Source: Podospora anserina
Lineage: Eukaryota
Direction: 5' to 3'
Length of the DNA stretch: 64,000 nt
NCBI GenBank assembly: GCA_017654855.1
Contig: CM030338.1
Coordinates: forward strand, 3,720,001 to 3,784,000
Positions 2,156-9,389 of this stretch are shown one piece after another. The position numbers were made by a program, and so were the translations under genes. How positions within the stretch are numbered: position 1 is the stretch's first letter; each line of letters begins with the position of its first letter. Below the pieces are notes generated by a model, which ran no database searches, was not told where the DNA came from, and worked only from the letters and a program-made list of their open reading frames with translations.

Positions 2156-3595
2156 CTACCTTACATGACTTGGATCTGGTTGGGGCAGTGATTCATCATC
2201 CCAGTTGATCACCTTTCTCTTCCGGCTTCTTTTTGGGCTCTCATCTTGCTTTTCTCCAGCCGTATCCATATTCACATCGCCCTCCCGGTCCTGCCCATAC
2301 CCCACCCCATCATCATTCCCACCCCCGACAGCCTCGGAGACGTCTTTCATCTCAGCGTCCCTGTTATCACCACCATCTTCACCCGAGCCGTCACCATCAT
2401 CAGCAATACCACCTTCCGCATGCTCGTAACTCGCCCGCCGACCGGTCAACACGCCCAAAACCCACACCCTCGCCTCCCCAATCTTCTCCACCACTTCATC
2501 CCTTCTCTTCTCCGCCTCAGACAGCTTCTCCTCCGCATTGACAACCCTTCTCTCGGCAGCAGCAACGCGTCTATCCACCCTCGACATTCCCTCCCCCGGA
2601 CCTGACCGTGTCGGATACTCCCGCTCCGTAGCCCTCGCCGCGCTGGCTTCCGCTCTCTTTTGCGCGCGGTTCTTCCTCTGTTTTTCCTCGCGCACAGCAG
2701 AGGAACATTCCCCGACGTGATCCTCACATAGTCTCAGGTGCAGGTGTAACAACCCTTGCTTTGGTTCATCATCTGGGTTTGCGTCGGGGAGGAGCCAAGG
2801 GAGGGAGACAGGCGTGAACAAGTCTTGTATCTTGGCCAGCCGCTCGCCGTATCTCGAAATGATCCAGCAGTTGCCCTGGCAGGATTCCTGGGTGAGCTTT
2901 TGGTGGATCTGGGCAGTGTAGAGCGTCGAGGGGTGAAGACAATGGGCGCAGGGAGGCCGAGGGTCGCGGGGCCCAGGCGCGGCGGAGGACTGGTAAGTGA
3001 GGGGTTTGCTGCTGGGATGGAGGGTGGTTGGACGCTGGGATTGTGGGTGATCTTGTTCGTCCACGGAGAAGGGGCGCGAGGAGAGGAAGTGTGGTCGTTC
3101 GCAAGCGCAGCACTGGATGCCTGCTGGGGTGAGCCGATTGGGGATCAGGTTCACGCCAGAAAGGGTGCAAATTGGATTCGAAAACTTGTTGAGAAGGATG
3201 CAAGACAGAATCATCGGTTTTTTGCAGTTCCAACATGTCGATGGTTGCAGCTTGGGTACCTTGTTCTTCTCAGGCTTGTGTGACGCTTTCTGCTTTGTTG
3301 GCTTCCAGTCTTTAATGTTTGGAATATCCTCATAGTCAGAAGACGAGCTCTCAAGATAGGAGGAGAGGATTTCTTGCTGGCGAACAGGTTGGACAAGAAT
3401 CGGGGGTGATATTAGAGGGTTGAGATGGAGCTCGTAGGCGTTGCAAAGTGTTTGACAATTGCAAGACTGACATTGCCACCGACGGGGAAGAATTATTTCG
3501 TGTGCGCCGAGGGATATGATGGGTGGAGGTGGGCGTCCTAGAGGTTGGCTGAACCCTGGGATGCCAGATATGGCCAGAATACACCTGTCCGCCAT
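2156..3595 (-). CDS. Hypothetical 479-aa protein with Cys-pair (zinc-ribbon-like) modules, a coiled coil and an acidic/basic tail
   Basis: Intronless long ORF; WQCQSC..CWNC..C and QCCAC..CAHC..CQGNC motifs; E/K/R-rich helix; PKRSRKRK putative NLS. Confidence 0.75.
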   Translation of the reverse strand: MADRCILAISGIPGFSQPLGRPPPPIISLGAHEIILPRRWQCQSCNCQTLCNAYELHLNPLISPPILVQPVRQQEILSSYLESSSSDYEDIPNIKDWKPTKQKASHKPEKNKVPKLQPSTCWNCKKPMILSCILLNKFSNPICTLSGVNLIPNRLTPAGIQCCACERPHFLSSRPFSVDEQDHPQSQRPTTLHPSSKPLTYQSSAAPGPRDPRPPCAHCLHPSTLYTAQIHQKLTQESCQGNCWIISRYGERLAKIQDLFTPVSLPWLLPDANPDDEPKQGLLHLHLRLCEDHVGECSSAVREEKQRKNRAQKRAEASAARATEREYPTRSGPGEGMSRVDRRVAAAERRVVNAEEKLSEAEKRRDEVVEKIGEARVWVLGVLTGRRASYEHAEGGIADDGDGSGEDGGDNRDAEMKDVSEAVGGGNDDGVGYGQDREGDVNMDTAGEKQDESPKRSRKRKVINWDDESLPQPDPSHVR

Positions 3596-4232
3596 GTTGC
3601 CTGGGTAGGTATGCCAAAGTCAGGTTGTGGATGAAATTTGTGAAGAGGGTTGGTGGTGTTAGGTCTTCTGTCGTGGTCGTGGTTGAAGAAGGACAACGTG
3701 GGAATTCTGGAGTTTCAGTAAACAAATTTACTTCCATCCTTGGGTGCCTACCTGCCGGCTTTGAATATGGGGCGGCGACAGTGGCAGCGCTGCTAGGTGC
3801 TCCGCTCCGTCGTCGTCTCGACGGAAGACCTGGTGACACCCAGCCACCATTCGTAACCTACCATAATAGGTAGCCGATAGACTTATAGACAAGGTCTTTG
3901 ACAGTTCTCCATTGTTCAGTGGCAGCAGGGATCGATTGTATTTGTTATTAATGGGGACATCACAATATCTTTGAAGAAAAATGGGATAGCAGTTTCAGTG
4001 ATAGACCCCTACTGTTTCTGTACATGTAAGCCATTTGTGAGTGTAATTGCTTCTGAGACTTTTCCATCGCGTGTACATGTAGAAACAAAAAGCTAAGACC
4101 ATGTGTACCGTGGTATATTGTGAAATGGTTATGTTTGCTTCGAGACTAAACATATATCAGGTTCAATCCCTATTTGCCTTCTGACCCTACTACTCAGGTG
4201 TGGAACACATTCATGAGTATCAGCATTGTCAA

Positions 4233-5304
4233 TTAGCAATCCTCGTCTTGGTTCTCTTCATCTCCCGTTTCCTGATTGTCATTCTCCTCATTATCTTCGT
4301 CTTTGTCACCAACATCTAGGATCTTCATTTGAGACAGTTCCATGACACCTTGAGACTTTCTTCTCGTCTCTGGCTTTGTACGAGCCATGCCTCCACCCAG
4401 GTTCCGTGCCATCACGGCTACAGCACTTGTATATGAATCCATCTGGATATGCCACCCTGTGATAAAGAGTATCTTTGGGAGATGGGGCACTAAAGGTAGC
4501 AATATTCCAGGCAGCGCGCTGCTCATTCAAACTCGAGAGGAGCTAAGAGTATTCGGGTTAGCTGTCGAAAAGACCAACTGGATCTTTCCTTCAAGACTTT
4601 AGAACATGAAGTCTCAACTTACCTGAATGGCAGGAGCAGGCAGATTGACCATTAGCCCCTTCATCAAACCTTTTATTGCAAAGTCCACAGATGCGAAGAC
4701 TGGCATCATCGTCGTTCCTCTTTCGCTTCATACCTATACCAGCATCCGGCTGTGTGGCAACTGTAATCTTGTCCTGGGGCCTTATGAACCCCAACTTCAC
4801 AAGGCTTTGCATCACCGTCCCCTTTGCAGCACGTCCAGATGAACCCCTCAGGATGTTCATCTTTCTCCGCCAATGTCATCGGTCCCTCTCGCCACTCTTC
4901 CCATTCTTCCCATATCTCGGCGTCCTCGTTTTGCTCACACTCCCCTGGAATTGTTAACCGGACTGATGGAAGTACATAAAAATGGGTCTGATAGACATAC
5001 CATCGTGGTACTCGCACTCTCCGTGCTTGTTTTCAGAGTCGAAAAATGTCTCTTCACATCGCTCACATAAATGAAATTCCGACTGGAGAGAAATTGGTGC
5101 GGTTATTTTGACTGCTGGCTTGAAAGTTCCAGCTGCATCTACTCTGCCAAGCAAAGGAATGGTGCATACTTGGTGAAGGGTAGAGAGATATTCGGTGAGG
5201 GTCTTTTGCACGTCGCCGTTCTTGCTGCATAGCACTCTGAGCGCTGCCTTGATATGATCTGGTGGTGCATTTAGGATGTCGCTGATATTGTCGAATACAG
5301 CCAT
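4233..5304 (-). CDS. Paralog A of Cys/His (CHORD-like) tandem array; possible intact 180-aa single-module protein (5304-5001, 4944-4706) followed by a frameshifted, decayed second module
   Basis: MAVFDNISDILNAPPDHIKAALRVLC..CERC..N..CEYHDG, intron 5000-4945, then GECEQ..WEEW..PEGFIWTCC..PC..H; second module (ICGLC..N..CSCHSG, donor at 4622, YPDGFIYKCC) lies in other frames. Confidence 0.7.
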
Positions 5305-5620
5305 TCTGCTCGAGGTGAATCGCTTTCAACTTGGTGCTTGTTTGTAATGTGTTGTGTGAGTTTGGGGACCGGGCAAAGGGTGAACGCGTCTGGGAAATTA
5401 CAAATGGCATGGCAAGATGGCCCAAGCCACCCCTAAGCACAGTGTGAACTTCTCTAGGTTTGACAGCTCGAAAAATAATTATGCTAGTTTTTTTACAAGA
5501 TTGTATTAGGCTCCTGCATGGGTGACAGAGGTAGAGCCTGAGCCTAGAGATGAAGTAGTTAAGTGAAACACAACGTATCCCCTGTCCCTTTTATGTCCTC
5601 TGCTTATTGCTCCTCTCCCT

Positions 5621-6340
5621 TCACCTTCTTATCACCCTTTGCTCTGTGAGGCCCTGTGGTACATCCAGAGACACCTCCATTAGTGTCACAAACTCACAAG
5701 TGTGATAAGTGCGAGCATCGTTTGAGTTGTTGGCATCAGTGAATGCCTGGTCGCAGCGCTCACAAATCTTCAGGTCGTCATGCTCTTCTCTCTCACGCTT
5801 GACTGAGATGCCGGTTCCTTGAGCAGAGGAATGCTGAAGGTGATGAAAGAGGTGCAGAGGGTTCATGCTTTTGACTCTTGCACCGTTGTTCCGTAGCTCG
5901 CCTGTCGCAACATATCCAGAGGAAGCCCTCTGGGTATTCCATTTGATTGTCTGGAGTGTCCATAGGTCCATAGTGATCTTCTTCATAACCATTCCAAACA
6001 CTGGAATCTTCAACTACCATACATTCTCCAGTATTAAGCTCAGTATTAAGCTCTTAACACGTGCTGCGTTTTGTCAGAGATTGCTGCTCAGGGAGGGGGG
6101 CTTACCATCATGAAACCAGCGCGCGCCATCTTTATTATCAGTTTCTAAGAATGGATTTTTGCAATTGTGCAAAAATTGCAGCTCGGCCGATCAGTCAGGC
6201 TTCTGTTCTCTGACAATGGAAAGATATTCGGCAATGGTATCGCATGCTTCTTTGTTCTTGGTGCAGAAAATGCGCAGAGCAGTACCTAGATGCTCTGGCG
6301 GTGCATTCAGAATGTCGTCAGGTTTCTAGGAGTTTTCCAT
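5621..6340 (-). pseudogene. Paralog B of Cys/His (CHORD-like) tandem array, pseudogene
   Basis: ATG at 6340 reads MENS*KPDDILNAPPEHLGTALRIFCTKN.. with in-frame TAG and TGA; intron donor after WFHDG (6105) but acceptor reads ctg instead of cag; YPEGFLWICC..C..H; frameshift before second module ICERC..N..TYHT. Confidence 0.8.
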
Positions 6341-6624
6341 GGTTCTTCTTAAATGACTATTGGGCGTTGGTTGTGTTTAAGTTGGCAAAGTGAACATTGC
6401 AATGTGAAGCGATAAATGCTATCCTCAGAAGTCGCGTTTGGACAAACGCGTCCGGTAGAGCTGAAGTCTGGGGTTATCTATCATGCCGGACACTTTTCCT
6501 TTTTCATTAAGCCGTTCATGGCCCGAGGCCACTGGCATCACTATCATAAGATTACAAATAAATCTGCCAAAACACTAAAACTCAGAAATGTACCTGGTCA
6601 CTATTTACACACTCCAAACACAGT

Positions 6625-7763
6625 TCATAGACACTCTTCCTGATTACTCCCGGGCCTCATCACAGCCTTTGGAATCGTCTTCTCCCTCGTATTCCGCTTC
6701 CTCATGCTCCGGCTTAGAATCCGACTTAAACCTTCCTCTCTTGGAGTTCTTGCCCTAATGCCTCCTAAATTTACAATCACGTTTTCTCGCCGGGTGTCTT
6801 TCCTATCCCTAGGCTCGTGAGCTAGCTCATCCCAGTCATACCAGACATATGAGTCTTCATCAAGCTCTGACAGACCCGATATATATTCTTCTGATGTCCT
6901 GGATACAGACAGTACCAATCCAAAAGCCGGCCAAGTTTGTTTGCCACAGAACACGATGTGAAGACTGGATGGTAGAGCTACCTCCTATATCTCACAAAAC
7001 GGTTGGATTCAGGTGCCTGATAATCTGAGTGCTCCCTCTTCCGCTTCATCTTTCTGAGAACGACAGCCTCCATGTCTGATATCTTGCGATATATAGGCTG
7101 TGTTGGGTCCCTGGCTTGATGATGCCCAAGTGTACAGCCTGACCGGCCGCCTTCTTTGTCGCAATAGGTGTACTTGAAGCCAGCAAGGTACAGATCCTTA
7201 TTCCTCTCATCATCACGAGGATCCCCCGCATCTGAGTCCCAGTCCTCCCACTCCCCCGCTTCCCAGGCGCATTCTAGTTCGCCTTCATGAACAGAAGAAA
7301 CTATTAGCAACACGGCAAGTCAAATTCGAGCGGTAGACAACTTGAAGGGCGATTACCAGGATGATATCGGCACTCGTTTGCTTGGTGCTTTGACACAAAA
7401 AAGCTAGCCTCGCACTGTACACACTCAATATAGTCGTGTTTGACCCTAGGCTTCGGTGCAGGGGCGGCGGCGCGAACCGGAGCCGGAGCAGGCGGGCGGC
7501 CAGAAGTAGAGGTGCGAGTGGAAGAGGAAGTATGACTAGAAGTAAAAGTACGACTAGGGAGTAGGAGCCGGAGCACGTGGAGGACCAGGGGCGGGAGTGG
7601 TCACGGGAGCTCGCAGTGGGCGTTTCTTCTGGAGATTTTTGAGATGTCTGACCAGCCGAATACTGACCACCTCATCGTTATTGCACAAAGCATACATTGC
7701 ATCGCGCAGATGCTCTTCCGGCGCATTGAAAAGGTAGTCCAACCTTTCCGCATGCGTAGCCAT
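6625..7763 (-). pseudogene. Paralog C of Cys/His (CHORD-like) tandem array, frameshifted
   Basis: MATHAERLDYLFNAPEEHLRDAMYALC; +1 frameshift near 7557; CVQC..N.CRYHPG, intron 7356-7283, WEDWD..GFKYTYC..GC..H; degenerate second module (*LYHP..VWYDWDE) at 6625-6980. Confidence 0.75.
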
Positions 7764-7958
7764 GATGAAAGAGAAGATAAAGTCGGGGAACATGAGGATG
7801 AATGCCGAAAAGATTCAGAGCTTTGAATTTTGAGCAGATATAAACATGCAAACAGAGTGCGCTCGTGGGATTGCAATTTCCCTATCTGAGCCCCACCGAC
7901 TTGGCAACTGTTGACACCCCTTTTTTTCTCTATTGACACCAAGTCTTTGTACGCCTTC

Positions 7959-8520
7959 TCACTCTTTACTGATCTTCGAGACCGACCTCTTTCTTTGCCT
8001 TCTCTTTTCTGCCAAGGCTTTGTCTTCGAGTAATTGGTGTTTGCCATATGTACAACCTCGTGCGCTCGCAATCTTGTCGCAGCACATGTGTACCGAAACC
8101 CTCCAGGCTTGTTCTCACGGTTTTCGGGAGTGTCTTGGAGACCGTTATCTTCCCAAACCCAACCTTCCCAAGTGTATGATGAATCATCCACCACAAGAGA
8201 CTCTACGATCCGGTTAGTTGAGGAAACTGGAATGTTGGAAAAGGAAGTAGCCTGCCAGGATGATAGCGGCAGTCTCCATCAAGGTCATAATCTCGGACCC
8301 AAGCCTTGTTACATTGGCAACAGATATCAACTTCAAATGCATCCCCATCTTCCTCGCTCTCCTCCCCCTCCCCATCATAGGACTGAACCGCCTCCAAAGC
8401 TTGCGTCAAGCGTTCCCGGAGCTTCACATCAACCTTGCATTGTGCTTTCAAAACAGCACGAAGTTGACATTCAGGTGCCTTGCGATCCGTTCTGCGCTCC
8501 ATGTCTCTTGATATTCGCAT
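7959..8520 (-). pseudogene. Paralog D of Cys/His (CHORD-like) tandem array, frameshifted
   Basis: KAPECQLRAVLKAQC..CCQC..DCRYHPG; non-canonical gcaggc donor at the conserved intron position; WEGWVWE..PGGFRYT then a 2-nt shift into CCDKIASARGCTYGKH. Confidence 0.75.
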
Positions 8521-9358
8521 TCACTGACCGATTCCTCTTCCGAGTCCATCGCTGGGAATGATTTGCTGAGGTTGGTGGGTTTGAGGTGAAAGTTGGGTCA
8601 ACTTGAACAAACTGGTAAATAGTGTCGAGTTTAAATCGAACTGCACTCGAGCTATGCCCAAGAGAGTTAGTTAAATGAGCCTCATATTCATCTTGGTATT
8701 TGTCATTATCGAGAGCCTGCCGAGGTTATTGCTAGTTTACGAAGTGAAAGTTGCAGCACCATCTCTACAGTAAATCCTTCCTTGCACAGTGGTCGCCAAC
8801 ATGGAGTTTTGTGTGAGACGTTGAGGTCTGGCCCCAATCCCGGTTGACCGGAGTCACTCGGCCCGACCATGTGGTGGTCGCCAAACAGTCAACGACCAGA
8901 CCGGCGGTTTCGGCCGCCGTGTTACCGAGATTCGTCCCACTGCTCGGAGGCCGGGGCCACGGAGGAGTCCTCTTGTCAAAAGTTGAAGTCAGGGAGGCCG
9001 GTGACACGTTGAGCCAGACACGACTGATATTTGTCAGGCAAAAGTCATGAAACACACCAAAAGACCACTTTCAGCTGCGATCATCAAATGTTGTTTCTGC
9101 GTTTCTGCGTGTTCTCCACAGCAGGCCAGGGAAGTGGCCGTTGGAATGGCTAAAAAAAGGGGGCCATGGGCGGGGTACCGTTGGATAGCTCCGGCTCTGG
9201 GAATTCCAGCATCTGGTTCCAGGTTTTCCAGAGGTGGGGCCTTTTTCAGGGGGACCACCTTTTGCCAGTTGCCGCCAATTCCCGGAACGCGCGGATACGA
9301 GTGAACACGAGCGAGTTGGATCATGACAAACGGATGAACCATGCCGGCGGACCACAAC

Positions 9359-9363
<5 letters not shown>

Positions 9364-9389
<26 letters not shown>
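9364..9389. repeat. (CA)13 microsatellite
   Basis: cacacacacacacacacacacacaca read directly. Confidence 0.95.

Follow-up and report, generated by a model that had tools for sequence, protein, structure and literature searches.

CHORD domains (PF04968) are known from Rar1, CHORDC1/Chp1/morgana and melusin, with 2XCM and 2YRT as structures, and their eight ligands run in the order C, C, C, H, CC, C, H. The pattern H, CC, C is also that of the BTK zinc motif (PF00779), which follows a PH domain, and a link between CHORD and Btk reportedly stands in the title of work by Kaur and Subramanian from 2018. Cut8 (Sts1; PF08559) has a helical segment with a role in dimerisation. PMC2935968 gives the assignment of the ligands in Rar1, with the spacing C-x4-C, H-x14-CC and CC-x15-C, and PMC12129344 describes a single CHORD in the ribonucleases Rex3 and REXO1, a CHORD fold without an Hsp90 context. 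Here we analyse four genes, copies A to D, that encode Cys/His modules in a 64-kb stretch of Podospora anserina DNA (assembly GCA_017654855.1, contig CM030338.1, positions 3,720,001 to 3,784,000), called the window below. Our best overall explanation, to which we give a probability of about 0.65 for identity and mechanism together, has two parts. It is highly probable that the four genes are divergent members of a large and mostly fungal family, that they form a tandem cluster of considerable age, and that this cluster is now in decay in the present lineage; that the intact proteins are non-catalytic, dimeric, nuclear protein-binding adaptors, and not Hsp90 co-chaperones, is a tentative proposal with a little less than even chances.

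The relationship to CHORD, which an initial annotation had suggested from ligand spacing, is supported by profile and structure comparisons. A profile search against the PDB returned 2YRT (E 5.2e-7) and 2XCM (E 1.2e-4) as the sole matches under E 0.2, and both Foldseek and VIA-align placed the same two structures first when given a predicted model. The predicted model of the relative P0009 has a pLDDT of 85.5, reaching 96-98 in the module, and its N-terminal part consists of three helices. The BTK, KIX and Cut8 folds are absent from the listed fold-search matches, and among viral structures none matched at E<=0.001 (best E 0.02, TM 0.25). Sequence models recognise little of this: PF04968 matched none of ten window pieces at E<=10, nor P0001 or P0002 (relatives from Apiosordaria backusii and Triangularia verruculosa), a search of the organism's own genome with that model does not list the cluster, and weak matches were obtained in 20 of 106 relatives (E<=0.05, best 9.6e-5). 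Pfam as a whole gave no family under E 0.01 on the window pieces, and a single-sequence search of the PDB with P0002 gave no match at E<=10.

The family is large. With P0002 as query, 576 clusters at 50% identity were found at E<=0.001, and the best 150 of the 576 were examined; the counts given here refer to sets of 151 proteins, 121 modules or 106 relatives. Among 25 proteins looked up, those with a named source belong to Sordariales, Coniochaetales, Xylariales and Hypocreales or to two basidiomycetes, and a form with the C-terminal lobe only occurs in a foraminiferan data set. Helices with one module make up 98 of the 151 proteins, helices with two modules 4, and repeats of the C-terminal lobe alone 11; a tandem module pair occurs in 6 and the eight-ligand pattern in 115. 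Fusions were looked for in proteins of 507-2000 aa, and none was seen among the 8000 candidates scored, which is weak evidence. In the databases the members are called hypothetical or 'C2H2-type', and one reading would take this automatic label at its word and make them nucleic-acid-binding zinc fingers. The source names, a motif resembling a nuclear localisation signal (NLS) and the single CHORD of the Rex3/REXO1 ribonucleases mentioned above speak for such a role, but P0001 reaches 11.9 bits with zf-C2H2, whose cut-off is 25.2, and P0002 gives no match to it, and the fold is CHORD-like, the surface of module 1 strongly acidic and a nuclease domain lacking, so we regard this as a very remote prospect. 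The fold is already known and the family is present in databases under the wrong label; the correction, to a CHORD fold and not C2H2, concerns the annotation of hundreds of fungal protein clusters.

The spacing of the ligands sets the family apart from its described relatives. C-x2-C was found in 115 of the 121 modules, H-x38-42-CC in 118 and CC-x8-C in 104. The eight ligands are those of CHORD, but C-x2-C stands in place of C-x4-C, about 40 residues instead of 14 separate H from CC, and CC is followed by 8 residues instead of 15, without the Hsp90-binding helix. In contrast to CHORD proteins, members have no CS domain, have N-terminal helices that are predicted to dimerise, and usually carry one module. 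The C-terminal lobe has the same H...CC...C site as the BTK motif; unlike BTK, the window modules would add a second zinc site, no PH match is seen and the N-terminal part is three helices. No BTK chain appeared in the profile or fold searches and no Pfam BTK among the families shown, and Atlas feature scores of 0.79-0.80 for BTK are leads only. Compared with Rex3/REXO1/GOR, the family has no DEDDh nuclease and its intact counterparts end shortly after the module; RNase_T has four matches in the genome, none of them in the window, and Atlas structure matches to the Rex3/REXO1/GOR clusters (TM 0.31-0.43) lie under the bar for naming. Where Rex3/REXO1 have a KIX triple helix the family has three predicted helices, whose profile gave no significant PDB match. 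A Rex3 of the organism's own genome was not found, which is not evidence of absence. An Atlas match of P0009 to a cluster of DUF8254 (PF26782) does meet the naming bar (TM 0.43, 83 aligned), and DUF8254 is carried by 14% of one near ascomycete cluster, the nearest two clusters having no common Pfam family; it was not reported by the Pfam copy searched, which may not contain the model. DUF8254 may overlap the family. A literature search gave no paper on the family, on DUF8254 or on FOXG_01120, although the 2018 work on CHORD and Btk may cover the family. If our reading is true, the CHORD scaffold has been reused without Hsp90 beyond Rex3/REXO1.

The four copies lie head to tail on the minus strand, in the order D (7959..8549), C (6644..7763, the lower end being approximate), B (5604..6340) and A (4233..5304) along that strand. 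With profiles built from 106 outside relatives, the N-terminal three-helix segment, the predicted homodimerisation domain, was matched in A (5167..5286), B (6194-6325), C (7620-7751) and D (~8385-8481), at E 8e-7 to 2e-6 in A, C and B and at E 0.03 in D, and the module was matched in 14 fragments (E 1e-16 to 0.03). All helix and module matches lie within 4233-8549; elsewhere in the window the module profile has no match at E<=1 and the helix profile two short pieces at chance level (E 0.68 and 0.95). Protein searches of the organism's own genome (36 Mb, 9 contigs) gave no further credible copy, the copy count being a lower bound, and three matches outside the cluster (E 0.01-0.13) proved not to belong to the family where they were inspected (L005). 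Between the four copies, identity in the first module is 21-36%. The initial annotation had described four paralogs with a shared N-terminal helix and a common module, and the profiles bear out both; the Cys/His ligand pattern that it gave stands, but the F-x4-N part of its motif is not kept in C and D. A likeness of the helices to an F-box or BC-box was weighed by eye and dropped, no such Pfam family being among those shown.

The initial annotation had also placed a second, decayed module behind a KRKR-like linker in A, B and C, as we find as well, but it understated the damage, for B, C and D are also broken in their first modules or at their starts. Read from the first ATG, the spliced frames are 180 aa in A, 4 aa in B, 69 aa in C and 33 aa in D, and the ligands retained are 8/8 in A module 1, 8/8 in D module 1 across a frameshift, 7/8 in C module 1, and 6/8 in both B module 1 and A module 2. 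The 180-aa frame of A, with its stop at 4708-4706, holds the helical domain and module 1; a frameshift near 4780 cuts off module 2, which contains one more frameshift, and the acidic tail is in a different frame, ending at 4233. Read through, A is 58% identical to P0001 and 47% to P0002. Copy B has the two-module layout and is the counterpart of the intact P0004 (46% over 256 columns), with stops at codon 5 and at 6193-6191, two ligands missing from module 1, a frameshift in the linker, an intron acceptor gone, and about 45 codons, most of the second half, deleted from module 2. In C, which reads helices, Pro/Thr-rich linker, module 1, KRKR linker, module 2 remnant (~6770-7016, E 0.002) and acidic tail, a frameshift near 7558 in the Pro/Thr-rich linker leaves an open frame for the helices only. 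Around this frameshift, at 7459-7610, short GC-rich repeats and 18-nt imperfect repeats expand the Pro/Thr/Ser linker. Copy D is a one-module gene with a basic tail and no second module; a frameshift near 8485 ends the frame from the ATG at 8549, and a second, near 8087, falls directly before the CC pair. From the ATG at 8520 or 8502 D is open for 288 or 282 aa, without CC, the last C and the last H, and its original start was likely 8549 rather than 8520.

Assembly or sequencing error was considered as the cause of the frameshifts and rejected, since the runs agree and the long neighbouring open reading frames (ORFs) are intact. All 499 sampled words were present in 14 of 24 listed runs, the 14 coming from 4 studies, with the reservation that 8 of those 14 are flagged as possible sources and that all the runs may represent one laboratory lineage. 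A contig from run X13 is identical to the window over 3900-8900, and putative RNA contigs likewise show no difference. Repeat-induced point mutation (RIP) was also rejected, as TpA/ApT is 0.63 and the substrate index 1.42 in the cluster, within the range of the window. In this genome B, C and D are pseudogenes, and A is still able to encode a family-typical one-module protein of 180 aa. Module 1 of A scores 80 bits, where the 5th percentile of the relatives is 76, with Pro in place of the Gly before the seventh ligand that 101 of 106 relatives keep. Among four non-identical close relatives of A exon 1, P0156 has lost the first Cys (C80Y) and P0158 a conserved Asn (N92Y), and P0012 carries the same two ligand losses in module 2 as A. 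Because of these losses in its relatives, A is probably also under relaxed selection. What the locus documents is chiefly the death of genes, and study should turn to the intact genes of relatives; a laboratory fungus left with little or nothing of the family offers a clean background for expressing intact members.

Copies A, C and D are spliced in runs that we take for RNA; this label is a guess, none of the runs being on record as RNA, and the depths cannot rank the copies. In A, intron 1 (4945..5000, 56 nt, GT-AG) lies in phase 1 in the Gly of HDG and intron 2 (4543..4622, 80 nt, GT-AG) at the same position of module 2, and both are skipped in run X15. The C intron (7283..7356, 74 nt, GT-AG) is in phase 1 in the Gly of HPG and is skipped in X16 and X18, from two studies. 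The D intron (8203..8255, 53 nt) is GC-AG, in phase 1 after His-Pro, skipped in X15 and retained in X16 and X18, and its splicing yields HPE instead of HPG. In B a remnant of intron 1 (6030..6105) has an intact donor, a homologous acceptor without AG and a 12-nt tandem duplication just upstream of it, and is unspliced in the sole putative RNA contig that covers it (depth 2.2). The claim that all four copies share a phase-1 intron in the Gly of HxG is therefore good for A and C by RNA, must be modified for the GC donor and HPE of D, and fails for B, although the spliced introns of A, C and D are all in phase 1 after His-x. The intron is family-wide: of 49 metagenome loci with a recognisable N-terminal lobe, 45 have a GT at its position and 3 a GC (31 further loci could not be classed). 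Consequently it does not date the duplications. GC donors are found in copy D and in L038, L039 and L062. A hidden intron that would rescue the frame of C was rejected, as the RNA contigs are gapless over 7356-7803. Putative RNA contigs over D (1261-1503 nt) cover 7799-8900 and extend past 8900 in all three RNA runs, and D seems to have a long 5' leader toward a GT repeat near 9370 and a divergent GH17 gene.

The ancestral two-module form proposed for A to C still exists, intact, in T. verruculosa, in two genes with consecutive accessions (KAK4198048.1 and KAK4198049.1), both recorded on a contig of equal length. The relatives nearest to A are from A. backusii, T. verruculosa and T. setosa, and A exon 1 shares 96% identity with a model from Podospora pseudocomata; module 1 of A is 71% identical to P0001 of A. 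backusii, module 2 of A 69% to module 2 of P0002, and module 1 of B 49% to P0004. In a tree of 33 rows and 84 columns, in which most forks are open, a branch with SH-aLRT 97 separates A and B from C and D, and the split between A and B is older than the genera compared. A recent duplication at the DNA level was rejected, the longest shared stretch being 32 nt at 78%. P0002 (KAK4198049.1) is a mosaic, with B-like helices and module 1 and an A-like module 2, and this suggests conversion or unequal crossing-over between tandem neighbours. A gene model of T. setosa, P0005 (KAK4178029.1), runs from the end of a B-like gene straight into an A-like one, the same B-then-A order, and is probably a mis-predicted or decayed locus. 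More than one C-terminal lobe was present in 20 of 80 metagenome loci (about 13 once near-identical loci were merged), and separate genes accounted for 5 of the 10 such loci inspected. Multi-gene loci thus recur, and clustering appears as a habit of the family. Five divergent, intact-looking members in both orientations lie within 5.3 kb in L078:2053-7386, and L080:61-1577 has three modules that combine the canonical CHORD C-x4-C spacing with the family insert, intermediate toward PF04968. Repeat proteins of the C-terminal lobe, with one H, CC, C site in each repeat, were seen in L050, L075, L095 and L103 and in P0020, P0072 and P0113; at least one comes from a protist data set, and they are stand-alone repeats resembling the BTK motif.

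These data allow us to weigh a further reading, that the genes are Rar1/Chp1-like co-chaperones working with Hsp90 and Sgt1 for fungal NLRs in a fast-turnover conflict or immunity locus, as the initial annotation had proposed. The CHORD homology is true, tandem pairs occur in A, B, C and 6 of the 151 relatives, and the pseudogenes, the mosaic gene of T. verruculosa and the clusters in other fungi also speak for this reading. According to PMC2935968, the Hsp90 patch of Rar1 comprises A185, F187, W194, F204, F207 and M208 plus His188/Asp189, with His188 invariant. The equivalent of W194 is W in 92 of 106 relatives and A185 aligns with Leu, but F204, D205, F207 and M208 map to a 7-residue stretch absent from the family profile, so that three of the six hydrophobic contacts are deleted, and the His188 position is Asp or Asn in 97 of 106 (D 77, N 20, by an ungapped mapping). 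The 25 Pfam families shown for the 106 members do not include CS, and none was seen in P0001 or P0002, whereas a canonical CHORD-CHORD-CS gene (L018) that keeps the Hsp90-binding helix lies on another contig (G000:C1, ~4148.3-4150.1 kb). Judged from the sequences, members of the family are probably not Hsp90 co-chaperones, the binding helix having been replaced by an acidic insert. As to conflict or immunity, the window contains 23 long ORFs, all of them without NLR and HET domains. Birth-and-death evolution stands in so far as genes have died and neighbours have likely recombined once, but rapid recent turnover does not, given the low identity of the copies, the old split of A and B and the absence of RIP; moreover, a Fusarium member forms a 49-member cluster, and identity over 11 aligned sequences of 182-183 aa is 93-99%, a degree of conservation that speaks against an arms race throughout the family. 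Birth-and-death is present but slow, with old births and recent deaths, and the Rar1/Chp1-like reading appears improbable to us.

What the intact proteins do instead is suggested by the helices and the insert. Residues 1-148 of P0009 were predicted to form a symmetric homodimer with an interface at residues 4-48, scoring 0.61 in three runs that share at least 96% of contacts, against 0.00 for the best of 3 controls and with a pLDDT of at least 86. The mark used for dimers was reached by 17 of 29 solved eukaryotic homodimers and 0 of 30 single chains, and by 1 of 7 homodimers without an older solved relative. The contacts fall on conserved hydrophobic positions (19, 22, 23, 26, 27, 37, 40 and 41). 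Conserved W, D, G and P-E-G-F mark the insert of about 40 residues, whose net charge averages -9.6 and does not exceed -5 in 112 of 121 modules; module 2 of the A and B genes has no acidic insert and may bind something else. Of the 121 modules, 88 have a basic cluster no more than 22 aa upstream, compared with 439 of 3020 random windows (14.5%), and 5 of 151 proteins contain a hydrophobic run of sufficient length to be a membrane or signal segment. We therefore propose an ancestral form of A and B, and probably C, with three helices, linker, module 1, KRKR linker, module 2 and tail, and a one-module form for D and most of the family. Each module would be a CHORD fold with interleaved ligands, which by homology to Rar1 should hold two zinc ions, one with C, C, C and the last H and the other with H, CC, C. 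The three helices are predicted to homodimerise, and a one-module protein would in this way present paired CHORD-like domains, a pairing that would mirror the tandem CHORDs within one chain. The KRK cluster before the module is a putative NLS, and the conserved acidic, Trp-rich insert a candidate binding surface, most plausibly for basic protein segments.

A similar layout would also suit a nuclear import or tethering adaptor of the Sts1/Cut8 type, whose dimer helices and NLS would bring in importin and whose zinc module would carry a large cargo. The arrangement of cargo-binding region, linker and NLS described in PMC12979645 matches, a short helix pattern L-x-x-x-L-x-x-L-C is similar, 2 of 106 relatives gave weak Cut8 matches (best E 0.006), and the helix profile scores 12.8 bits on the organism's own Cut8. 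The similarity is not significant, however: comparison with one Cut8 sequence by hhalign gave a probability of 0.8% and E 0.07 over 16 columns, a search of PDB sequences with the helix profile gave 6 matches, all at E>0.4 and none of them a Cut8 chain, the rest of the protein is unrelated, and the genome has its own Cut8 while the family is dispensable here. Such an adaptor is to our mind highly unlikely.

A last alternative holds that the truncated products are functional. A would then be a one-module gene still in use, and the 69-aa product of C and the product of D from its second ATG would be dimerisation-only decoys that pair with A or with each other and tune A in the manner of plant microProteins. 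Module 1 of A has stayed intact although module 2 decayed, the transcripts of A, C and D are spliced, and the open frame of C stops just past the predicted dimer helices. Against this stand C80Y and N92Y in A exon 1 of the sister genomes and the Pro at the near-invariant Gly of A, and the helices of A and C are only 28% identical; we consider it unlikely. The adaptor reading can also be extended, in that divergent paralogs clustered in unrelated fungi may form combinatorial dimers. The family, hidden behind its 'C2H2' label, might then form a third and very large branch of the CHORD fold: the tandem arrangement would have given way to dimer helices and the Hsp90-binding helix to the acidic, Trp-rich insert, combinatorial homo- and heterodimers would read basic nuclear proteins, and spliced but truncated copies such as C would be dominant-negative decoys of a fungal microProtein system. 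This is speculative and we would not expect it to hold in full.

The genes around the cluster are ordinary and intact, and include an aspartyl protease, GH17, MFS, Zn2Cys6, Kelch, ZIP, Dom34 and WD40 proteins, among others. Just downstream of A, at 2156-3619 on the minus strand, is an ORF of 487 codons that matches neither Pfam nor the family profiles and encodes several Cys-x2-Cys and His motifs and a basic/acidic tail.

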